Source of the DNA: a virus
Lineage: Duplodnaviria > Caudoviricetes
Direction: 5' to 3' (one strand)
Length of the DNA stretch: 64,000 nt
IMG/VR virus record: IMGVR_UViG_3300031992_000012
Location: 32,001 to 96,000 of that record
Notes under the pieces: model-generated
What the model saw: the letters and a program-made list of their open reading frames with translations, nothing else
What the model was told of the DNA's origin: nothing
Databases searched by the model: none
Program-made: the position numbers and the translations under genes
Shown here: piece after piece, positions 3 through 12,113 of the stretch
Numbering within the stretch: the first letter of the stretch is position 1
How the letters are laid out: every line of letters starts with the position of its first letter

Positions 3-1334
3 GGGCAGAAGAACACGGATTTCTGGCGCGACTTCAAGATGGGGAAGAACCCCGTCACGCCCGGCGTCCCGCTCATCTACGAGCGGTTCCTGGCCTCCCT
101 TGAGGGCTCCGGCATCCACATAACGAAGGACGGCGACAAGACGAACGTCTTCGCCATGACGAACGGCGACGTCGACAAGATAGCCCGCGCCGAACTAAAC
201 AGCGCGGCCACGTACGACGACAAGCGCTTCCTGCCAATCCGGGGCGGTCTGTTCGACCCCGCCATCTTCGGCCCCGAGGGCAACCAGTGGGCCAAGATCA
301 AGCTCGACGAACCCGTCCTCAACCCCATAATGGACGATGTCGTCTGCAACTTCCTGAATCTCAAGAAGGCCGAGCTGGACGACGTCCTCGCCGGCAGCAG
401 GAAGCTTCCCAACGGAATGACCGGCGGCGAAGGCCTACGCCAGCAGCTCGCCCATGTCAACCTCGACTCCCTTATCGAGAACGCCAAGAACACAATCCGC
501 ACCGGCCCCCCTTCCAGACGCGACAAGGCTGTGAAAACCCTCCGCTGGGCGTCCGCCATGAAGAACCACGACGCCACGCCCGACATGTTCATGCTGGACG
601 CCGTCCCCGTCCTCCCGCCGAAATACAGGCGCATAACTCGGTCGGGCGACCTCAACATGATTGCCGACGCAAACTACCTCTACAAGCAGCTACTTGACTC
701 CAGGGACGACCTGAGGCAGGCGAAGAACGCCGGACTGCCGGACGAGCTGCTCGCATACGGACGCAAGCGGATAACGGACTCCTTCCGCGCCATAACCGGA
801 CTGGCCGACCCGACCGACAGGAAGCTGGTGGACAGCGACGTCACCGGTCTGCTGAAATGGGTGTTCGGGAAAGGTTCGCCAAAAATGGGCGCGGCCCAGC
901 GGCTGGTCATAGGCGGCAAGCTTGACGTGGCCGGCCGAAGCGTCATCAACATCGACCCCAGGCTCGACTTCGACGAGATAGGGATGCCCGAGAAGCAGGC
1001 GTGGCCGCTGTACAGGGACTTTGTCATACGGAAGCTGGTGCAGGCGGGGATGAACCCGCTGCAGGCGACAAGGGCGACAGTGGAGCACACGCCGTTGGCG
1101 AAACAGGCGTTGATAAAGGCCATGAGCGAACGGCCGGTCATAGCGACACGGGCGCCCGCGCTGCACAAGTTCAGCGTCCAGGCGTTCAAGCCGAAGCTGG
1201 TTAGCGGGGATACACTGAAGCTGAACAGTGTAGTGGAGCATGCGTTTAACGCAGACTTTGACGGGGACCTTCAAATAAACAGCGTATTTGTAAGGTTTTA
1301 TGATAAATCGTCTGAGGGTCAAAAAATAAAATAG
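3..1334 (+). CDS. rpoC: Phage multisubunit RNA polymerase, beta C-terminus fused to beta' N-terminal region, ending with a short intein N-fragment (5' partial)
   Basis: Frame is open from the window edge. PGVPLIYERFLASLEGSGIHI resembles the RpoB C-terminus. Beta' motifs follow: GGLFDPAIFG, VPVLPPKYR, GGKLDVAGRSVI, RAPALHKFSVQAF and catalytic NADFDGD (1248-1268). Stop comes 21 codons later. Confidence 0.93.
   Translation, partial: GQKNTDFWRDFKMGKNPVTPGVPLIYERFLASLEGSGIHITKDGDKTNVFAMTNGDVDKIARAELNSAATYDDKRFLPIRGGLFDPAIFGPEGNQWAKIKLDEPVLNPIMDDVVCNFLNLKKAELDDVLAGSRKLPNGMTGGEGLRQQLAHVNLDSLIENAKNTIRTGPPSRRDKAVKTLRWASAMKNHDATPDMFMLDAVPVLPPKYRRITRSGDLNMIADANYLYKQLLDSRDDLRQAKNAGLPDELLAYGRKRITDSFRAITGLADPTDRKLVDSDVTGLLKWVFGKGSPKMGAAQRLVIGGKLDVAGRSVINIDPRLDFDEIGMPEKQAWPLYRDFVIRKLVQAGMNPLQATRATVEHTPLAKQALIKAMSERPVIATRAPALHKFSVQAFKPKLVSGDTLKLNSVVEHAFNADFDGDLQINSVFVRFYDKSSEGQKIK
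1269..1331 (+). mobile_element. Putative short N-fragment of an atypically split intein (LQINSVFVRFYDKSSEGQKIK)
   Basis: Non-RNAP, AT-rich 21-codon tail right after NADFDGD; (D)LQINSVFV loosely matches intein block A spacing but has no Cys/Ser at position 1. Confidence 0.6.
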
Positions 1335-1354
1335 GAAAAATATCAAACTCTGCC

Positions 1355-1382
1355 TTGACATTGTTCTTTTCCGCATTATAGT
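1355..1382 (+). promoter_or_regulatory. sigma70-like promoter between the two halves of the split RNAP/intein gene
   Basis: TTGACA (1355-1360), 16-nt spacer, TATAGT (1377-1382). Confidence 0.65.
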
Positions 1383-1414
1383 AATAGCATGTTCAATCGA
1401 GGAACGTGCTATTA
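1382..1414 (+). promoter_or_regulatory. 13-bp stem-loop in the 5' leader of the intein C-part gene
   Basis: TAATAGCATGTTC / GAACGTGCTATTA with one G-U pair; buries the GTG at 1406, so ATG 1439 (SD AAGGA) is the likelier start. Confidence 0.6.
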
Positions 1415-1438
1415 ACCCTAATGAAAAGGAAAAGAACA

Positions 1439-3253
1439 ATGAACAGAGTAAAGTTTTTCTCTAACGGCCAGACTTTGATTATGAACCTTGCGGATATTCC
1501 GCATGGTGCCCTTATCGGCTCCAAGGACTTTGACGATGGAAGGCACATTGACTTTTATGAGGCCCTTCCAGGAACACAGGTCATTGCATACGACGAAGCG
1601 ACGGGTAAGCCAAAGTGGGTTGATATCTCCGGTTGGTCGAGGCACACCGGTTCAAAATTGGAGCTGGTGCAGTTGTCCAACGGCGACACGATAACGACGG
1701 ACGACGACCCCCGCGCCGTTTATGGGATGCCTATTGACGCGGTTGGTTTGCAGATGGACAGGGACACGCCCGCTAACGCCAAAAAACGTGCGTTTATAGT
1801 CCCGCTGGTAGGGCAGCTTCCTGAGACTACTCCGGTGTTTTCTTCCGTTGACCTTTTGAACGGCGGTGTTCCTTCAAACGACACGCCAATCCCAAGCAAG
1901 GGAATAATAGCCGCCGACTACAATTTCGGACAGTTCCTTGGTCTTATCGCCGGAGACGGGTGGTGGCATAAGAGTATATACAGTTCTGGTTATAAAAACG
2001 CTGTTCTTTTAGCAGACCTTTACGGCTCAAATGCCGGCTTTATTATAAATTGGGCTAAGGAACTATTCCCTAGTTTTAAATACTACAAGAGCGAGCAGAG
2101 AAAGGAATTATACTCTGATCGGTTTGGTGACTGTATTTCGTGGTCCTTCTACTTCTACGATTCCATGATAATGTGCGACGCCCTGTCCAACATGCTTGAC
2201 GGGCATAGTGACAACAAAACGGCAGGAGCAGGGAACAAGCGTCTTCCTTACTGGTTCCTGTCCATGCCGAAGGAGTTCCGTCTAGGTCTTCTTAATGGTC
2301 TAATGGCTTCCGATGGAACAATAAATTTCAATTCCTCCGGCGACAGAAGCCACCCAGAACTGCAGCTTCAGTTCACATCGACATCCCGGGCGCTTATTGA
2401 CGACGTAAAGGCTTTGTGCACTTCCCTGGACATACGCGCCACAATATTATTCTCGAGGAAAACAGTCCGCGACAATACATCCTGGGTGGTTGTTCTGAGC
2501 TCCCAGGACTGCAAACGAATGGACGTCTTTTCCCGTTGCTGCTGCGACTATAAGCGTGATACGTTCCTGAACGCGGATGTCTCGATGGACGCGCAGTACA
2601 ATCACGGTGACTTTCTGCCGCTTCCGAAGCAGGTGTCCGATACAATGTTCAAATACGTGAAGTGCCGGGCGAAGATTGCCAAGGCGGTTATCGAGGATTG
2701 CCCTCTTCCTGCCTACTGCAAGAGGGGGAACTCCGTCTATCAGTCGTTGTACCAGTATAGGTCCAAGGGGTACATAACGAGGGAATTCGCAGGCCGGCTA
2801 TGCGACTGGCTGGACGATACGACAAGGATGAACCTATGGTTCAATGACTATATCAAGGATTTTACAACGCGTTTGAAAAACGGTGAGCGTGTTTTCAAGG
2901 CGGAGGAGGGGAACACGCTGGTGGAAGCCATAGCCTTCAATGCGGGTTATTTTGACAAACCATCTGTTCTTGAGGCACGGGCCAAGTCAAGCATGCTTCG
3001 TCAGAAGACAAGCAGGTTTCCTGTAAACTTGCCTGAAGCTCTTGAGAAGGTGACGCTGTCTGATGATGCTATCCTGTTCAATCCTGTCGAGAAGGACCCA
3101 GTGCTAAGGGCCTGGTTGGAACTGTCGGCGTGTCCGATAAAATGGGCTTACATAGAGGATGTCCAGAAAACAGGGCAGGAGGAGGAAGGATATGACCTTA
3201 CTGTTCCCGGATATGAGACCTTTGCGTCCGCCAGCGGAATAATCCTTTCCAAC
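1439..3253 (+). mobile_element. Intein C-fragment with homing endonuclease
   Basis: Ends ...ILSN|T (Asn 3251-3253, Thr+1); lower GC than flanks. Confidence 0.85.
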
Positions 3254-3526
3254 ACAATGACATACTACGTGCCTGTCTCCAAGAAGGCCGTGCAGGAGGC
3301 ATACGACCTCATGCTTCCTTCCAAGAACCAGTTGGCGGCCCGTGACTTCAAGGCCCTTCCCGAGCTTCAGGAGGAGCTGGTCTCCGGGGCGTGGCTGGCG
3401 TCTCATAAGAAGAACGCGCCTGTAAAGGCCGTGTTCAACACCCGCGCCGAAGCCATAGCGGCCTACCGCGCAGGAGAAATAGACATAGACGACAATGTGG
3501 TAATAAAGGAAGACCAGCACCGCTGA
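1439..3526 (+). CDS. Intein C-part with LAGLIDADG homing endonuclease, fused to the ~90-aa RNAP beta' continuation (C-extein TMTYYVPVS...)
   Basis: LAGLIDADG motifs FLGLIAGDG and LNGLMASDG; block F/G GYDLTVPGYETFASASGIILSN; then TMTYYVPVSKKAVQEAYDLMLPSKN, which matches the beta' segment following NADFDGD. Confidence 0.9.
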   Translation: MNRVKFFSNGQTLIMNLADIPHGALIGSKDFDDGRHIDFYEALPGTQVIAYDEATGKPKWVDISGWSRHTGSKLELVQLSNGDTITTDDDPRAVYGMPIDAVGLQMDRDTPANAKKRAFIVPLVGQLPETTPVFSSVDLLNGGVPSNDTPIPSKGIIAADYNFGQFLGLIAGDGWWHKSIYSSGYKNAVLLADLYGSNAGFIINWAKELFPSFKYYKSEQRKELYSDRFGDCISWSFYFYDSMIMCDALSNMLDGHSDNKTAGAGNKRLPYWFLSMPKEFRLGLLNGLMASDGTINFNSSGDRSHPELQLQFTSTSRALIDDVKALCTSLDIRATILFSRKTVRDNTSWVVVLSSQDCKRMDVFSRCCCDYKRDTFLNADVSMDAQYNHGDFLPLPKQVSDTMFKYVKCRAKIAKAVIEDCPLPAYCKRGNSVYQSLYQYRSKGYITREFAGRLCDWLDDTTRMNLWFNDYIKDFTTRLKNGERVFKAEEGNTLVEAIAFNAGYFDKPSVLEARAKSSMLRQKTSRFPVNLPEALEKVTLSDDAILFNPVEKDPVLRAWLELSACPIKWAYIEDVQKTGQEEEGYDLTVPGYETFASASGIILSNTMTYYVPVSKKAVQEAYDLMLPSKNQLAARDFKALPELQEELVSGAWLASHKKNAPVKAVFNTRAEAIAAYRAGEIDIDDNVVIKEDQHR
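2858..2881. repeat. Degenerate copy of 24-bp palindrome GATTTTCCAACGCGTTGGAAAATC
   Basis: GATTTTACAACGCGTTTGAAAAAC, 21/24 identical to the copy at 42618. Confidence 0.5.
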
Positions 3527-3551
3527 AACAACACCCTTCCCGCGTAATAAT
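3522..3551 (+). promoter_or_regulatory. Repeated phage promoter copy 1
   Basis: GCTGAAA-N14-CGTAATAAT. Confidence 0.75.
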
Positions 3552-3582
3552 TCATTAAGGAAGGGTTACCTAGCCCGCTCCC

Positions 3583-3606
3583 GCCCGGCTTTTACGCCGG
3601 GCTTTT
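3583..3606 (+). terminator. Rho-independent terminator
   Basis: GCCCGGC/GCCGGGC stem followed by TTTT. Confidence 0.6.
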
Positions 3607-3635
3607 CATTTCGTTACATCACAGGAGGCAAAAAC

Positions 3636-3812
3636 ATGTTTTTCATCATCGACCTTTTCCTGGCGGTAATCGCCGCCCTGTCCGAACCCGCCCCGCAGCC
3701 GGCGCCGCCAATCCAGGAGGAGCATATATGGGTTGAGAGGCGCATGGAGATGCGGCATCACGACCATCTGATACGAACGCCGACGATAAGCGGCGACGCA
3801 GTTAAACGCTGA
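3636..3812 (+). CDS. Small 58-aa protein with hydrophobic N-terminus
   Basis: AGGAGG SD; MFFIIDLFLAVIAALSEPAPQPAPP...; below the ORF-track cutoff. Confidence 0.55.
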   Translation: MFFIIDLFLAVIAALSEPAPQPAPPIQEEHIWVERRMEMRHHDHLIRTPTISGDAVKR

Positions 3813-3818
3813 AGAAGC

Positions 3819-3852
3819 GCCCGGGTCTTCATCCGAAAGACCCGGGCTTTTT
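3819..3852 (+). terminator. Rho-independent terminator
   Basis: GCCCGGGTCTT/AAGACCCGGGC stem plus T-run. Confidence 0.75.
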
Positions 3853-3879
3853 GTTGTCGATTTTTAACAAGGAGAAACG

Positions 3880-4632
3880 ATGGGTCATTTCATGGAAACC
3901 GACGGGCTCACGAAGCTGCCCGTCTACCCCGGCGACGACGTGCATATGTTCATTGGCTACTACGACAAAGGGGACGACGGAAAGAAAGCGCTGAACCCGC
4001 TGCTTGTTATGGAGACCTGGGAGCCCCGTGACTGGGCGGCCAGCATAGAGGTTCTCAGGGGCGAGTACGATTCCTACGGCTGGCTTGAGGGTGTCGAACG
4101 GATAGCCAAAGAAAGCGGAACGTCATTCGAGACGGTGTTCTTCCGTCATTCGACCGTGCTCTGGGCGCGCAGGCTTTACGCCAACCGCAAGGACGACATG
4201 TCGGACTACTGGAGGAAGAAGGAGCTCGAGGACAGGACGGAGCTTCGCGCCACCATGTCCGAATGGGACAAGGAGCTTGGCGACCTCTATTGGAACCACG
4301 GGCGCAACGCCGCCAACTACGCAATCGACATGTACTGCCGCAAGGACCCCGGCAAGTTCGGCGCCGACCATATGGAGTTCTTCTCCATGTTCATGAACGG
4401 GCTGTCGTCGAAGGACGTGTACTGGTCGGTGCTGAACCATCTTGCCGGTCATGTATACCGGAAGATAATAGTGCCGGTATTCTACGCCGCCAAGGCGTGC
4501 AGGACGTCCATCTGGCCCAACCCCTACGGCGACCAGGATGGATTCGACATCACCGAAAACAGGAAGCTGGCAAAGTTCACGCTCGGTCAGGCGGAAGCAA
4601 TAATAAAGGAGCGCAGGAAGCGCTTGAAGTAA
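3880..4632 (+). CDS. Hypothetical protein
   Basis: 250-aa ORF with AAGGAG SD. Confidence 0.8.
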   Translation: MGHFMETDGLTKLPVYPGDDVHMFIGYYDKGDDGKKALNPLLVMETWEPRDWAASIEVLRGEYDSYGWLEGVERIAKESGTSFETVFFRHSTVLWARRLYANRKDDMSDYWRKKELEDRTELRATMSEWDKELGDLYWNHGRNAANYAIDMYCRKDPGKFGADHMEFFSMFMNGLSSKDVYWSVLNHLAGHVYRKIIVPVFYAAKACRTSIWPNPYGDQDGFDITENRKLAKFTLGQAEAIIKERRKRLK

Positions 4633-7082: not shown

Positions 7083-10000
7083 ATGGAAGAAATCAGATTC
7101 TTTAGGAAGCGGTCCGGCCGTCTCGTGAACTTCAAACTGCAGAAGATTGCGGACGCGGTCGGGAAAGCCCTCGTCGAGGCGTGCGCAGCGTCGGGGAAGT
7201 CATTGGATGTCAAGGCCGTTTCCACGGCAATCGCCGAAAAGGTAAGGGCGTTGCTGGATGACAAGGACTCGCAGTTTTTCGTTCAGCCGGACAGGATGGG
7301 TTCGCGGGTCCCCCATCTGGAAGGCGTGCAGGACGCGGTTGTCAGCGTCCTCAAATCATCGCATGAAGATATAGAGGGGTATGACGCGAACATGGCCGAG
7401 CTCACGGGCCGTCTGTACGCCGACTACCGGAAGAAGAGGGACGAGGCCAGGAAGCAGCTCAAAGTCCGCAGCAGCAAGGACAACGCCGATGTGACTGACA
7501 AGGCCCTTCTCCTTGGGGACAGCAAGAACGTCCTCAACGGGTGGGACCGCGAGCGCATAGTCTCCGATCTCAAGGAGCACAACGTCGACGACGAAATAGC
7601 CGAGAAGGTCGCAAAGGAGACAGAAAGCGCTCTCCTGAAGACCGGCCTGTCTAGTGTGTCGTCCGACCTTGTCTCCGAATTGGTGAACAGTGTCATGGCC
7701 GACAACGGTCTTCCCATAAGACTCGCCGCCGGGAAGGGATACATAGTCGACAAGGATTTCGTCGAAGGGCTTATCAAGGAGAAGTCCGTAGAGAACAGCA
7801 ACATCGTCGGCAACAACCCTGAAGCGGTGGCCTTTGACATTGCCAGCAACGTTTTCAAGCAATACGCCCTTGACAACGTTTTCTCGAAGGACATCGGGGA
7901 AGCTCATATGAGGGGAGCAATACACCTTCATGATTTAAACTTTGTCATACGTGGCTACTGTGGTTCCCACAGCATCGAATACATCAAGAAGTGGGGGCTG
8001 AAGGGTCTGGTAAACCTGAACACGGAAAGCAAGCCTGCCAAGACCGCATCGGTCCTGACCGGCCATCTGAACACGTTCCTGGCTTCCATGCAGGCTTACT
8101 ACGCCGGAGCGCTGGGCCTGGGGTATCTTAACGTCCTCTATGCTCCGTTGATGACGGGAATGGACGACAAACAAATGCACCAGGTGGCTCAGGAACTTGT
8201 GTTCAACGGTTCTCAGAATGCGTTCAGCCGTGGTGGTCAATCACTGCATCCTTCCGAACCTATATGGATTAAAAAGGATGGTAGATATAAGAGTGTCCTT
8301 ATTGGTGAGTTTATCGACGAATATCTTGCCAGAAGGGCAGAGGCTGTTGAGAAGCGAGACGAATACGAGCTGCTCCAAACAGGAGACGAGGGTATCGAAA
8401 CAATAAGCTTCGACGGCCTAAGCGGAAAGGTACTGGACAAGACGGTTACTTTCCTTGCACGCATGCCTCATAAAGGCAAGATGTACCGTATTCACACGTC
8501 TAACGGAATTGTCAATGTTACAGGTGACCACTCGGTGTTCACTTTCCGGGGAAAGCAGGACATAGCTGATGTAAAAGCCAAGGACCTTAAGAGGGGCGAT
8601 TTTGTAGTCATACCCCACAGAGTTCCCCTCAAGGAGGAGAAGACAACAGTAAATGTTGTCGATTACGTTCCTGAGAAATGGCTATCGGTTAGTGGCTTTG
8701 AAAATTTCCTGTCCAAGGTGTCAGCTAAGGGCACCCCGGCAAAGGTCCTCGAGGAAGTCGGAGCTACCCGCTTTATCTTGAAAGATGGAAAGAAGACAAA
8801 CAAAGTAAGGATTTCCTTGGCTAAACATTTTGTTGATGTCAGGAATAGCGTTTTGTGTCTGAAGGGTGATAGCCAGTCGTTGTTGCCCGCAGAGATTCCT
8901 CTGACACGGGAGCTGGGCTATATAGCCGGTATGTTCTGCGCGGAGGGGTATAAAACTCTTAAGAAGGTTCTTATCAGCAATACTGATATAAAGCTTCTGG
9001 AGAAGGTACGGTCATGTCTGGATAAAATAGGGTACTCAGGATATTCCTATTACAACGGCATGATGCACGGAATGACGACGGACCATATAGAAATAGGCGG
9101 TGTTTTCGGGGCTTTCCTGCAATCTTCGTGTACATCCGGAAAGAAGACAAAAGTAGTTCCGGATTGGTTGTTCAACGCACCAATGGTTTGTCGTGAGGGG
9201 TTCCTTGATGGTTTCTTCGACGGTGAAGGCTCCAATAGGAAAGACTGCCCGGACGAATGGAGCGTCTCCAACACAAGCACACGGGTAGTGGCCGGTATAA
9301 GCTTGCTTTTACTGAACTACGGTAGAGAAACATATGTTTACGAAACCAAGCATGACAATGGCTGGTCTGACGTATATGAAGTCCGGGAAGCGCAGCGCAG
9401 AAAGGTCAATCCGTTTGACGAGTACACAACGGAAGAAGGGTTCCGCACATACAGCAAGCATCTGTCAAAGGATGTCAGGGATGCCGTGGAATGGCTCATA
9501 GAGTCAGACTTGTCGGTGTCTATCATCAAACGCATTGAGGAATACGATTATGATGGTCCTGTCTATGACATAAGCGTCCCAGGCACAGAGGCTTTCCTTG
9601 GTGGAACAGGGAATGTGTTTTTGCACAATACGCTTTTCATTGACTTCAATGTCCACAGCGGCGTCCCGTCGTATCTGAAGGATGTCCCCGCTATTGGACC
9701 TGGCGGAAAGTACATGGTTCAGGTCTTCCACTGCGGCGAACCCTTCATCAAGGAGCTCACCGAAGTCAAGGACGAGAAGACAGGCGACTGGGACCTCTAC
9801 CTTGACTGGGGCAACGAACATCCTGTCCGCATGCTTCATGAACACGACGGAAAGCAGGTGTTCGAGAACGAAAACACCGAGCGCCATGTCATGCGCTACG
9901 GCGACTACGCCGAGGATACCGCCCGTTTCGCCGAGGCGTTGCTCGACGTCTGGAAGGAAGGCGACGCCAATGGCCATGTTTTCGAGTTCCCCAAGTGCGA

Positions 10001-12113
10001 CTTCCATGTCTCCTCCGAGACATTCACGGACGCCCGCCAGTACCAGGTGTTCAGGAAGGCCTGCGAAGTGGCGAGTCACAATGGTTCGACCTACTTCGTG
10101 TTCGACCGCGATTCCGTGTCTTTGGCGAGTTGCTGCTTCACAGGAGACACCAGGATTCTTATTGGCGAGGACCGCGACCCGTCGCTTACATGTTTCCGCG
10201 ACGCCTATGACAAGTACGGAATCCACAACAGGACAATCCGTGTATACGACAGGGGCTCGTGGAGGAAGGCGAAGGTAATCCGCCTTTCCGGCAAGAACCG
10301 CCGAATGCTGTCGGTGAATCTGGCCTGCGGTAAGCACGTCTGCGTCACCGCCGACCATGAGTTCCCGACAACGCGCGGAGTGCTCAAGGCCTACGAGCTT
10401 ACCCCCGACGACGCAGTCCTGCTGTCCAGCAGCATGGCCGAAGGGCATCGCCGGTGCGAGGGAAAGGACAAGGCGCAGGTCTACGGAATCATAGCAGGCG
10501 CCTACCTGCTGTCCGGGCATTGCACCTCCACAGGCAAGACGATAGTCGTTGGAAACAGCCTTCCCGGCCTTGAAAACACGTTCTCGGAGACAATGAACAG
10601 CGCGCTTGAATCGGCAGGTTTCGACAAAGGCGTGTGCATGGTCGAGGAGGACGGCAACCGTCAAATGTGGGTCGTCACTAATCCTGAAATCCTCAACGGC
10701 GTTGAAAAATTGCTCAAGCGGACGGAGAACGGCGTATTCCTGTCCGATGCCATATATCGTGAGAGCCCGGCTGCCAGGGCCGCTGTCCTTATAGGACTCC
10801 TCGCGGCCTCCGCCGTCGAGTGCGAAGTGACTCCCGGCAGGATGGAGCTTCTTCTGGAGCAGATTGAGGCTATGGCCACGACCATCGGCGTAATCTGCAA
10901 AAAGCGAGTCGACGGGGATGACGTGTGCTTCTCCTTCGCCCCCGCAAGCATTGGGATGGAGGGCGAGACCATCGTCAAGGACGGTGAGAGCTATCTCAAG
11001 GTCCTGTCGGTAAAGGAAGTGCTGGAGCCCGAATGGGTCTACTGCTTCACTATGCTCGACACCAAGGACCCGTTCTTCACGCTGCCAAACGGTATCGTCA
11101 CGCACAACTGTCGATTGAAAGTGCAGATAACTGATATGTCGCTGTTGCAACATCCTGAAAGACTGAGAACACTAGGCTTTCAGAATGTCACAATAAACAT
11201 CCCTCAGTGCGCATACCGCGCCAAGCACAGGTACGACAGGGAAGGGGAAGGAAACATTGACAAGCTCAATGAATTCTTCCTTGCCGAAATCGACAGTATG
11301 ATGGACATATGCAAGGCCGCCCATCTCCAGAAGAAGGCGTTCGTCGAGACGCTGATGCGTCCCGGAGCGCCCATGTGGCAGATGGCCAAACCGTCCAACG
11401 ACGGCAATCCGTATCTCGACCTGAACACGGCCGTGTACATAATCGGCATGATTGGCCTCAACGACGCCGTCCACTATCTGACCGGAGAGGAGATGCACGA
11501 GTCCGACGCCGCCATGGACTACGCCCTCAACGTGATGACTCACATGTACCTGCGCTCCAAGGAATACACCAAGGAGACAGGCCTGACGTTCAAGCTCGAG
11601 GAAAGCCCGGCTGAATCGGCGGCTCGCCGTCTGGCGAAGGCCGACCTCGCCCTTTACAGGGAGGACGCGCTCAAGGTGTTCAAAGGCACCGAGGACGCCG
11701 CCTACTATACGAATTCCATACATCTGTCGGCCGACGCGCCGGTGGACATAGTGGAGCGTATCAGGAAGCAGTCGATGTTCCATAGCATCATCGAGAGCGG
11801 GGCGATTATTCATGTCTTCCTGGGCGAGTCCCGCCCCACGTCCGGAGCCATAGAGGAGCTTATACGCAATGTGTTCCTGCGTACCCAGTGCGCCCAGCTT
11901 GTCTTCAGCCCGGAGTTCACCTACTGCAACGAGTGCGGAAGGGAACAGGCCGGATTGAAGGACACATGCGATCAATGTGGTTCTTCTAACGTAATAGGTA
12001 TAACACGCGTTGTAGGTTACTACTCTGTCGTGCAGAATTGGAACAAGAGCAAGCGTTATGGCGAGCTCAAGGCACGCCAGCGCGGCAACTACAACGTGGA
12101 GGAGGCGAAATGA
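7083..12113 (+). CDS. nrdD: Anaerobic (class III) ribonucleoside-triphosphate reductase with ATP-cone and two inteins
   Basis: ATP-cone RKRSGRLVNFKLQKI; AHMRGAIHLHDL; SRGGQ|TLFIDFN; spliced SCCRL active site; EESPAESAARRLA; YYTNS; CxxC...CxxC; glycyl-radical loop ITRVVGYY. Confidence 0.96.
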   Translation: MEEIRFFRKRSGRLVNFKLQKIADAVGKALVEACAASGKSLDVKAVSTAIAEKVRALLDDKDSQFFVQPDRMGSRVPHLEGVQDAVVSVLKSSHEDIEGYDANMAELTGRLYADYRKKRDEARKQLKVRSSKDNADVTDKALLLGDSKNVLNGWDRERIVSDLKEHNVDDEIAEKVAKETESALLKTGLSSVSSDLVSELVNSVMADNGLPIRLAAGKGYIVDKDFVEGLIKEKSVENSNIVGNNPEAVAFDIASNVFKQYALDNVFSKDIGEAHMRGAIHLHDLNFVIRGYCGSHSIEYIKKWGLKGLVNLNTESKPAKTASVLTGHLNTFLASMQAYYAGALGLGYLNVLYAPLMTGMDDKQMHQVAQELVFNGSQNAFSRGGQSLHPSEPIWIKKDGRYKSVLIGEFIDEYLARRAEAVEKRDEYELLQTGDEGIETISFDGLSGKVLDKTVTFLARMPHKGKMYRIHTSNGIVNVTGDHSVFTFRGKQDIADVKAKDLKRGDFVVIPHRVPLKEEKTTVNVVDYVPEKWLSVSGFENFLSKVSAKGTPAKVLEEVGATRFILKDGKKTNKVRISLAKHFVDVRNSVLCLKGDSQSLLPAEIPLTRELGYIAGMFCAEGYKTLKKVLISNTDIKLLEKVRSCLDKIGYSGYSYYNGMMHGMTTDHIEIGGVFGAFLQSSCTSGKKTKVVPDWLFNAPMVCREGFLDGFFDGEGSNRKDCPDEWSVSNTSTRVVAGISLLLLNYGRETYVYETKHDNGWSDVYEVREAQRRKVNPFDEYTTEEGFRTYSKHLSKDVRDAVEWLIESDLSVSIIKRIEEYDYDGPVYDISVPGTEAFLGGTGNVFLHNTLFIDFNVHSGVPSYLKDVPAIGPGGKYMVQVFHCGEPFIKELTEVKDEKTGDWDLYLDWGNEHPVRMLHEHDGKQVFENENTERHVMRYGDYAEDTARFAEALLDVWKEGDANGHVFEFPKCDFHVSSETFTDARQYQVFRKACEVASHNGSTYFVFDRDSVSLASCCFTGDTRILIGEDRDPSLTCFRDAYDKYGIHNRTIRVYDRGSWRKAKVIRLSGKNRRMLSVNLACGKHVCVTADHEFPTTRGVLKAYELTPDDAVLLSSSMAEGHRRCEGKDKAQVYGIIAGAYLLSGHCTSTGKTIVVGNSLPGLENTFSETMNSALESAGFDKGVCMVEEDGNRQMWVVTNPEILNGVEKLLKRTENGVFLSDAIYRESPAARAAVLIGLLAASAVECEVTPGRMELLLEQIEAMATTIGVICKKRVDGDDVCFSFAPASIGMEGETIVKDGESYLKVLSVKEVLEPEWVYCFTMLDTKDPFFTLPNGIVTHNCRLKVQITDMSLLQHPERLRTLGFQNVTINIPQCAYRAKHRYDREGEGNIDKLNEFFLAEIDSMMDICKAAHLQKKAFVETLMRPGAPMWQMAKPSNDGNPYLDLNTAVYIIGMIGLNDAVHYLTGEEMHESDAAMDYALNVMTHMYLRSKEYTKETGLTFKLEESPAESAARRLAKADLALYREDALKVFKGTEDAAYYTNSIHLSADAPVDIVERIRKQSMFHSIIESGAIIHVFLGESRPTSGAIEELIRNVFLRTQCAQLVFSPEFTYCNECGREQAGLKDTCDQCGSSNVIGITRVVGYYSVVQNWNKSKRYGELKARQRGNYNVEEAK
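8241..9629 (+). mobile_element. nrdD intein 1 (463 aa) with LAGLIDADG homing endonuclease
   Basis: Starts SLHPSEPI, block B TGDH, motifs IAGMFCAEG and LDGFFDGEG, ends FLHN|T; AT-richer than extein. Confidence 0.92.
10134..11108 (+). mobile_element. nrdD intein 2 (325 aa) with degenerate endonuclease, inserted between the two active-site Cys
   Basis: Starts CFTGDTRI, block B TADH, ends VTHN|C; LAGLIDADG remnants IAGAYLLSG and LIGLLAASA lack acidic catalytic residues. Confidence 0.9.

Follow-up and report, generated by a model that had tools for sequence, protein, structure and literature searches.

How does a phage make a working RNA polymerase from a gene that is interrupted directly after the last Asp of its catalytic loop? 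The question is raised by a 64,000-nt stretch of DNA (hereafter the window), bases 32001-96000 of the 205-kb IMG/VR phage record IMGVR_UViG_3300031992_000012, which CheckV rates as 94% complete. The public runs that contain the stretch are sheep and cattle gut metagenomes, and the source is a rumen jumbo phage. In the window, the gene for a fusion of beta with the N-terminal part of beta' (beta-beta'N) stops shortly after the catalytic loop, and a second open reading frame (ORF) carries an intein-like insert with a homing endonuclease, followed by the continuation of beta'. A preliminary description, made from the sequence alone, had read this as an atypically split intein at the catalytic Asp that lacks canonical splicing residues, a reading that gains support here from block A homology, from a structural model of the contiguous relative P0017 and from divergent split relatives. 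We consider it probable that the insert is a functional, natural, atypically split intein that trans-splices; the association of its halves, their ligation, the identity of the nucleophile and a regulatory role for the gap between the two genes are what we infer from the evidence below.

The N-extein, the 3' part of the beta-beta'N fusion gene, occupies positions 1-1268 of the window, matches the Pfam families RNA_pol_Rpb2_6, Rpb1_1 and Rpb1_2, and ends in the Mg-binding motif NADFDGD (1248-1268); this and the other parts of the split gene described below lie on the + strand. Its reading frame, ORF1, starts upstream of the window (L003:3707-9334) and encodes 1875 residues in full, namely 1854 of beta-beta'N extein and then a tail of 21 residues that forms the N-terminal part of the intein (IntN). 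IntN consists of the 21 codons at 1269-1331 (LQINSVFVRFYDKSSEGQKIK) and, with its TAG stop (1332-1334), spans 1269-1334; to the HINT fold it contributes block A, with the first beta-strand and the beginning of a helix, and its residue 1 is Leu. An intergenic gap of 104 nt (1335-1438) follows, containing a sigma70-like promoter, a hairpin and a Shine-Dalgarno sequence. ORF2 then runs from an ATG at 1439 to 3526, in a different frame from ORF1, and encodes a product of 695 residues, numbered here from that Met; its start, which AAGGAA precedes at 1426-1431, is conserved as ATG-AAC in the split relative L009. The first 605 residues (1439-3253) are the C-terminal part of the intein (IntC), which completes the HINT fold, also contains a LAGLIDADG homing endonuclease, a helical domain of DNA-binding type and the C-terminal splicing blocks, and ends in Ser604-Asn605.

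Within IntC, the motif W-S-R-H (residues 66-69; 1634-1645) stands 18 residues before the block B Thr and is, by position only, a candidate both for the NX-motif His and for a relocated nucleophile. The block B (N3) equivalent, T-D-D-D-P-R (T87-R92; 1697-1714), keeps the Thr and the invariant Arg, with Asp at the place of the canonical His. The endonuclease domain (1916-2560, limits approximate) has the motifs ..IAGDGW.. and ..MASDGT.., with the acidic residues and a conserved Lys present, and Pfam LAGLIDADG_3 matches ORF2 residues 279-359 at E 5.7e-7. Blocks F and G (GYDLTVPGYETFASASGIILSN; 3188-3253) read GYDLTVPGYETF...GIILSN and lead into the Thr codon at 3254-3256 and TMTYYVPVS. In residue numbers, block F is G584-Y-D586-L-T-V-P-G-Y-E593-T-F, with Asp at F:4 and Glu at the usual position of the F-block His, and it is followed by S604, N605 and T606; the penultimate residue is thus Ser and the terminal one Asn (3251-3253). 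HMMER aligns this block to the Ssp DnaB intein (DLTVPGPHNF against DLTVPGyEtF). The C-extein (3254-3526, stop at 3524-3526) is made up of Thr+1 and 89 more beta' residues (TMTYYVPVS...). The GC content is 62% in the extein, 29% in IntN, 35% in the gap and 50% in IntC. The layout given in the preliminary description, with a beta' stop 21 codons after NADFDGD and a separate gene in another frame that carries the remainder of the intein, a LAGLIDADG nuclease and the junction SN/TMTYYVP, is therefore what the coordinates bear out.

The extein junction is fixed by homologues without the insert. The nearest named relatives of ORF1, at 28% identity, are gp206 of Salmonella phage Arash and the protein of Vibrio phage D69, which read DYDGD/ALSMYLPMT and DYDGD/AMSVFAPVT across the corresponding bond. 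The C-extein of ORF2 aligns to both without a gap, with the same spacing, and both proteins end at the same point as ORF2. The junction is therefore Asp/Thr, as the joined NADFDGD-TM proposed earlier had it, and the insert is exactly Leu1 to Asn, 626 residues in two pieces, the removal of which restores an uninterrupted host sequence (DFDGD followed by TMTYYVPVS...) comparable to that of Arash gp206 and D69.

The split is not an assembly error, since an independent sheep-gut contig from another sample and study (X3) is identical over 1124-3575, and a 47-kb bovine-gut contig (X6) from a strain of 94.5% identity covers 900-3508 with zero indels. The preliminary description had asked for read support across the junction; here the support is given by contigs. 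Nearly all of the differences from the bovine strain, which were listed up to position 1804 only, are third-position changes, both in ORF1 and in the HINT half at the N-terminus of ORF2; all seven ORF2 changes before 1740 are of this kind, and the IntN tail has a single change, Val to Ile. The split gene is under purifying selection. Near 3508-3518, just before the ORF2 stop, 535 extra bases replace 9 in the bovine contig, a further insertion where the beta' fragment ends. We also considered whether short direct repeats (1222-1268 and 1440-1487) mark a duplicated extein end, but equal scores arose in 10 of 2000 and 24 of 500 shuffles, and we regard the repeats as chance.

The residues that make the element odd are those of a family. 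With the intein part of ORF2 as query, HMMER was run exhaustively against 1.84 billion representative proteins and gave 476 relatives at E <= 0.001 and 165 at E <= 1e-30. Among the best 150 of the 476, 115 are contiguous polymerases that carry the element directly after D-x-(D/N)-G-D, and all conservation counts below refer to these 115. Judged from these alignments, the only site that the family occupies is the Asp-X bond that follows the metal-binding loop, D-x-D-G-D, in two-barrel RNA polymerases of phages. It is large and so far unannotated: all ten sampled clusters were metagenomic, their proteins unnamed, and tblastn of the intein against 50,697 GenBank phage records gave no match. No relative of the N-extein was found in viral contigs, the Pfam intein model scored below threshold on ORF2, and phmmer with the N-terminal HINT half against PDB sequences returned spurious matches only (E > 0.5).

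Residue 1 is variable across the family (Gln 42, Asp 16, Glu 14, Ala 13, Leu 7 and others, with Ser in 3 and Cys in 2); at residue 2, Gln is found in 70 and Cys in 13. The next residues, (I/L/V)-(G/N)-x-(V/I) and then hydrophobics, form a pattern common to the ORF1 tail and the family's block A. Further on, conservation becomes near absolute. The motif (W/Y/F)-S-x-H has His in 115/115 and Ser or Thr in 115/115; block B has the consensus Q-I-x-T-D-D-D-P-R-A-V-Y-G, where the first Asp is found in 115/115, the second is Asp or Asn, the third is Asp in 114/115 and Arg is present in 115/115. Block F has the consensus G-Y-D-L-T-V-P-G-Y-E-T-F, with Glu for His and Asp at F:4 in 115/115, G:5 is Leu in 110/115, and the C-terminal end L-S-N/T has Ser in 112/115, Asn in 115/115 and Thr+1 in 115/115. 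The endonuclease invariants are G-D-G-W, K-x-L-P and D-G. The window element, 32% identical to P0017, has every family invariant intact (S67, H69, T87, D88, D90, R92, D586, E593, T594, S604, N605 and T606).

Conservation of these residues in 115 relatives marks them as a family signature under selection rather than as erosion. Of the anomalies first noticed, Leu1, the TDDDP block B, the penultimate Ser and Thr+1 are all present and, with the exception of the variable residue 1, conserved family-wide; Asp at F:4 should be struck from that list, as it is the normal class 1 residue. Recent pseudogenisation, which would have left contiguous homologues with Cys or Ser at position 1, does not agree with the counts at that position (Cys 2/115, Ser 3/115).

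Two subgroups deserve mention here. Twelve contiguous members (P0003, P0004, P0005, P0007, P0010, P0013, P0014, P0021, P0023, P0028, P0033 and P0042), form one group in the tree and have D-(F/H)-N-G-D before the intein. In D-F-N-G-D the middle Mg-binding Asp has become Asn, followed by Gly, and ordinary splicing would leave the catalytic loop crippled. No dipeptide deamidates more readily than Asn-Gly, and a post-translational conversion of Asn to Asp in these members is conceivable. These exteins do not covary with a T-D-N-D-P block B, as the two sets of 12 have zero overlap. A second, well-supported subclade (P0048, P0051, P0052, P0055, P0058, P0060, P0062, P0073 and others) starts x-C-(I/L)-N-Q-(I/L)-x-A-C-I-P, so that its cysteines stand at positions 2 and 9 and not at 1, and keeps T-D-D-D-P-R and S-N/T.

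The split itself recurs. In six relatives with 31-55% intein identity, chosen because their intein ORF starts close to the strand at which ORF2 starts, a beta-beta'N ORF with a short tail is followed by an ORF of about 690 residues; junction DNA was read for five of them, and the sixth, the P0030 contig, is known by its gene map only. The tail after GD has 22 residues in L009 (55% identity; 102-nt gap), 25 in L010 (38% identity; 55-nt gap), 39 in L011 (two consecutive in-frame stops, a 12-nt gap and AGGAG), about 48 in L012 (11-nt overlap) and about 53 in L013 (49-nt overlap), where residue 1 is Cys; in the P0030 contig, the tail of which was not read, gene coordinates give a 138-nt gap. The IntN strand pattern is present in all five tails that were read. 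A maximum-likelihood tree places the split forms in two well-supported clades with contiguous members between them, which implies at least two split events, and the long branches (2.3 changes per site on the path from the window to the L010 protein) indicate that the split state has persisted. The preliminary description had called for an alignment of homologues at the split site, and this is what came of it: the split in six relatives, and the unusual residues in 115 contiguous ones. P0134 (627 residues) begins Met-Gln-Phe-Gly-Arg-Val-Phe-Thr-Leu, so that its ORF starts exactly at intein residue 1, which suggests, from sequence, that a split can also arise in a third way, right where extein and intein meet. 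In related phages (L013 1-1202, L011 and the P0030 contig), Hom_end_hint is also found in the Rpb1_5 ORF, and LAGLIDADG matches lie inside the beta part; to go by these matches, the whole polymerase is a hotspot for intein and endonuclease elements.

These observations bear on the idea that the element is decaying or dead, that is, that mutation broke the gene, that the odd residues reflect erosion and that the polymerase is tolerated in this state or being lost. The low GC of IntN and the gap (29-35%, against 62% in the extein) and the sub-threshold Pfam score would fit such a history. However, 115 contiguous relatives share the odd residues with little or no variation; in split relatives at 31-55% identity, both halves are retained, as are the IntN strand pattern and a separate ribosome-binding site; changes between strains are biased to third codon positions in both ORFs; and the gene holds the sole catalytic beta' domain in a record rated 94% complete. 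Conservation thus largely refutes this explanation, and we regard it as quite improbable.

Could the break instead be repaired before the protein is made, by a small intron, ribosomal bypass or a frameshift, to yield a contiguous precursor? The gap structure is very stable (z -9.5), small group I-like introns of about 200 nt are reported from gut jumbo phages (PMC12880540), and the distance from GD to the next conserved strand is 185 nt (about 62 codons), close to the roughly 60 residues of contiguous members. Yet 185 nt do not make a whole number of codons, and the family consensus is not regained with any exon junction. There are several stop codons in each of the three frames between 1269 and 1439, so a single frameshift cannot fuse ORF1 and ORF2. 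Over positions 1000-4000, Rfam 15 gave chance-level matches only, with no intron or ribozyme even at E up to 10 (such a search could miss a ribozyme that is very small or has no model), and the gap structure is a single long hairpin. A joint across the gap was found neither in DNA nor in RNA contigs, the latter coming from one sheep-gut metatranscriptome and spanning 1430-1880 only, too thin to give a transcript start or to exclude read-through. Finally, the relatives are split differently (a double stop with a 12-nt gap, 11-nt and 49-nt overlaps, a 55-nt gap), each with its ribosome-binding site and ATG. Taken together, we find repair ahead of the protein level highly improbable.

Where within the intein does the split fall? 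The fold was modelled for the contiguous member P0017 (residues 300-973) with AlphaFold (AF2) and a 114-sequence alignment (model me71c7764db32), giving a predicted local distance difference test score (pLDDT) of 88.4 and a predicted template modelling score (pTM) of 0.87. In model numbering, the residue after GD is 16 and the terminal Asn is 662. Foldseek returned PI-PfuI, TliVMA, PI-PkoII and PI-SceI as best matches (E 4e-13 to 8e-10; VIA Z 17-21), VIA-align matched model residues 15/16 to 662 with the full length (residue 1 to the last) of the Pho RadA, Mtu RecA, PI-SceI, TFIIB and Pab PolII inteins (Z 15-21), and the root-mean-square deviation from mini-inteins was 2-3 A. AceL NrdHF (PDB 6zgq), a split class 3 intein, matched at Z 15.0, and the endonuclease region (221-445) matched I-DmoI and I-Tsp061I at Z 15-17. 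According to the model, then, the HINT fold spans the insert from its first to its last residue.

The first strand of the model (20-26) is packed, with a block pLDDT of 79-89, and is followed by two short helices and a disordered segment (47-72). The ORF1 tail ends at about model residue 36 and the Met of ORF2 aligns at about 65. The split falls in the one flexible linker of the fold and leaves block A on the N-fragment, which makes this an atypically split intein. The equivalents of Ser67 and His69, Ser133 and His135 in the P0017 model, lie in its strand 131-145. An alternative assignment, in which FFSNGQTLIM at the ORF2 N-terminus would be block A (Cys to Phe) and the 185 nt an inserted cassette, was rejected, as both the family alignment and the model put block A in the ORF1 tail and make FFSNGQTLIM a later strand.

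The position of the insert bears on whether it must be removed at all. Established structures of RNA polymerases show that the residue after the third Mg-binding Asp is buried in the active centre. ORF1 is the one Rpb1_2 match in the 205-kb genome, and a 626-residue insert at the Mg-binding Asp of the sole Rpb1_2 domain is sterically incompatible with catalysis and has to leave. The least credible of the explanations we considered is consequently that the HINT-nuclease module stays in place for good, as a polymerase domain particular to this lineage. The absence of the classical N-terminal catalytic residues and the very strong conservation of the module could be read in this way; however, the insertion point is buried, an invariant Asn/Thr junction and an intact homing endonuclease characterise a mobile element that excises itself, and the split form would put a stop and a start codon inside the ‘domain’.

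By what chemistry might the insert leave? Three mechanistic classes of protein splicing are distinguished, each defined by the position of the first nucleophile, and the signatures of all three are absent here. For class 1, the element has Leu1, T-D-D-D instead of TxxH and Ser-Asn instead of His-Asn; for class 2, Thr and not Cys at +1, with the block B His absent; and for the class 3 WCT triplet (Trp B:12, Cys F:4, Thr G:5), at the two positions mapped, Asp at F:4 and Leu at G:5. Nor is there the Ser1 of cysteine-less (oxyester) inteins, as residue 1 is Leu in the window and Ser in only 3/115. With a variable residue 1, and the block B, block F and penultimate His replaced by Asp, Glu and Ser, class 1 activation of the N-terminal bond is impossible. 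What the element does have is the C-terminal end of an intein (Asn605-Thr606), the layout of atypically split inteins (two genes, an IntN of about 15-40 residues and a long IntC), here with an IntN of 21 residues and an own ribosome-binding site and ATG for IntC, and a candidate pair, R68-H69, that fits the NX motif by its position 18 residues before the block B Thr only, its His being found in 115/115.

We propose that the IntN strand would dock into IntC and complete the horseshoe fold. The acyl group of Asp(-1) would then pass to the hydroxyl of the invariant Thr+1 (Thr606), Asn605 would cyclise and release the intein, and an O-to-N shift would give ...NADFDGD-TMTYYVP..., the phage's only catalytic loop. 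For the first step we prefer a relocated nucleophile analogous to that of class 3, in which the Ser67-His69 pair of W-S-x-H would replace residue 1; Ser67 lies two residues before His69 in the same strand and thus faces the same way. Alternatively, Thr+1 might attack directly, as in class 2, or the always-present Asp(-1) might form an anhydride, a chemistry that is accepted for inteins ending in Asp.

The preliminary description had left open whether the element represents a new chemistry or C-terminal cleavage only. Under the latter, the halves would associate, the N-terminal bond would be hydrolysed and Asn605 would cyclise, leaving two non-covalent chains that meet at the catalytic Asp. The lack of a position-1 nucleophile and of catalytic histidines is in keeping with this, and PolB16 OarG shows a 9.5% C-cleavage side reaction (PMC10189870). 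The phage is also used to multi-chain assembly, as its beta' is already split: the Rpb1_5 part, with the bridge helix and trigger loop region, is a separate ORF of 763 residues 73 kb downstream, outside the window (G000:C1:106072-107361), so that the polymerase is assembled from at least three gene products even after splicing.

However, C-cleavage alone needs no +1 nucleophile and would not select for a +1 hydroxyl, yet Thr+1 is found in 115/115 and the intein-less Arash and D69 proteins have Ala; this pattern of residues favours transesterification, and with it true splicing, over cleavage only. The intact nuclease implies ongoing homing into intein-less alleles, which must stay functional and need a host protein that works immediately, and ligation is favoured for this reason as well as by the contiguity of intein-less homologues at the Asp/Thr bond. 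A free carboxylate on the third Mg-binding Asp would, moreover, make an unusual active site. We therefore judge cleavage without ligation unlikely, if less so than the explanations set aside above, and retain trans-splicing as our reading.

How the two halves come to be made is suggested by the gap. A promoter scan found a sigma70-like promoter at 1355-1382 (TTGACA-16-TATAGT, 11/12 matches), and a long imperfect hairpin (1359-1441; -43 kcal/mol, z -9.5) has its left arm between the -35 and the -10 and its right arm over the Shine-Dalgarno AAGGAA (1426-1431) and the start codon of ORF2. RNA that starts after the -10 (1390-1450) is unstructured (-4 kcal/mol, z 0.8). In L009 the gap keeps both hexamers and the 16-nt spacing, and its stems differ in sequence yet pair (-35 kcal/mol, z -7.7). 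The two halves are thus probably expressed from separate transcripts, and in read-through RNA the hairpin would mask the ORF2 ribosome-binding site.

Beyond this one phage, we put forward, more tentatively than trans-splicing itself, that the family is a fourth mechanistic class of inteins, in which the N-terminal bond is opened without a position-1 nucleophile or the block B, F and G histidines, the version here being split and cysteine-free with an IntN of 21 residues. Searches of the literature accessible to us returned nothing relevant on an intein at NADFDGD/DFDGD, on one in phage rpoC or on a further (‘class 4’) splicing class. Several points weigh against the splicing model on which the proposal is built. 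To our knowledge, inteins without Cys, Ser or Thr at position 1 splice only with Cys+1 (class 2) or the WCT triplet (class 3), and neither is present here, and Thr is ill suited to attacking an amide directly. Splicing in the family is a prediction from sequence and modelling, and that Ser67 and His69 lie near the scissile bond is deduced from strand periodicity and from where the NX motif sits. Evidence for the fold is taken from a homologue of 32% identity, as single-sequence AlphaFold of the window ORF2 alone gave an unusable model (pLDDT 34). In the 12 contiguous D-F-N-G-D members, ordinary splicing would leave a dead catalytic loop. Finally, a stringent sigma70 pattern occurs once in the 205 kb, in the gap, against 0.9 expected by chance; the count gives no support, and the promoter rests mainly on its conservation in one relative.

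Nevertheless, hundreds of diverse members are under purifying selection and carry none of the three class signatures, and their removal is required for an essential enzyme. A family that lacks all class signatures and yet must leave an essential enzyme is a testable candidate for a new splicing chemistry. Its split members are free of cysteine, and their IntN of 21 residues can be synthesised chemically, a property sought in tools such as PolB16 OarG and VidaL for semi-synthesis under oxidising conditions. For the phage, a sole polymerase active site that arises only after two separately expressed proteins meet offers a possible timing device or checkpoint for the switch to phage-directed transcription. 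The same phage also appears to encode ordinary inteins: at 7083-12113 of the window, an ORF of 1676 residues for an anaerobic ribonucleotide reductase (NrdD-like) apparently holds two canonical ones, one beginning with Ser and ending ...LHN/T and the other beginning CFTGDTRIL and ending ...THN/C, so that ordinary class 1 inteins coexist with the atypical one.

Among characterised inteins, PolB16 OarG offers the closest comparison in several respects. It is a split, cysteine-less intein from a sheep-gut metagenome with an IntN of 15 residues, in which the block B His is dispensable and the NX His critical (PMC10189870); more generally, cysteine-less inteins depend on a previously overlooked His, the NX motif, which usually follows Arg or Lys and makes contact with the N-terminal junction (Pasch et al. 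2023, PMC10189870). Our element shares with it the natural atypical split and very short IntN (15 residues there, 21 here), the type of habitat, and a cysteine-less, oxyester-type junction with Ser or Thr at +1. The block B His that is dispensable there is absent here, and a His about 20 fold-equivalent positions upstream of block B, critical there, is invariant here (R68-H69), a candidate correspondence drawn from position only. In contrast, PolB16 OarG has a canonical Ser1, block B His, penultimate His and block F Asp, where our element has Leu1 and Asp, Glu and Ser in place of the histidines, and it has no endonuclease and a DNA polymerase as its host, whereas ours carries a LAGLIDADG nuclease. 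That PolB16 OarG starts with Ser also corrects the earlier statement that known atypically split inteins start with Cys (PMC10189870).

Class 3 inteins, such as MP-Be DnaB (PMC2807308) and the split AceL NrdHF (PDB 6zgq), likewise have no nucleophile at position 1 and take the first attack from elsewhere in the fold; unlike them, our element has no WCT triplet, and its candidate nucleophile is a Ser in a different strand (NX-2). With the class 2 Mja KlbA intein it shares a non-nucleophilic residue 1, and the +1 residue could attack the N-terminal bond directly, but KlbA has Cys+1, TxxH and a penultimate His, whereas here +1 is Thr and those histidines are missing. AceL-TerL, GOS-TerL and VidaL resemble it in their short IntN, long IntC and phage or metagenome origin, yet have Cys1 and canonical blocks, and lack a promoter-plus-hairpin cassette between the halves within one host gene. 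The best structural matches, PI-PfuI, TliVMA, PI-PkoII and PI-SceI, have the same three-part architecture of HINT, LAGLIDADG and an extra DNA-binding domain, but are contiguous class 1 inteins with Cys1, TxxH and His-Asn.

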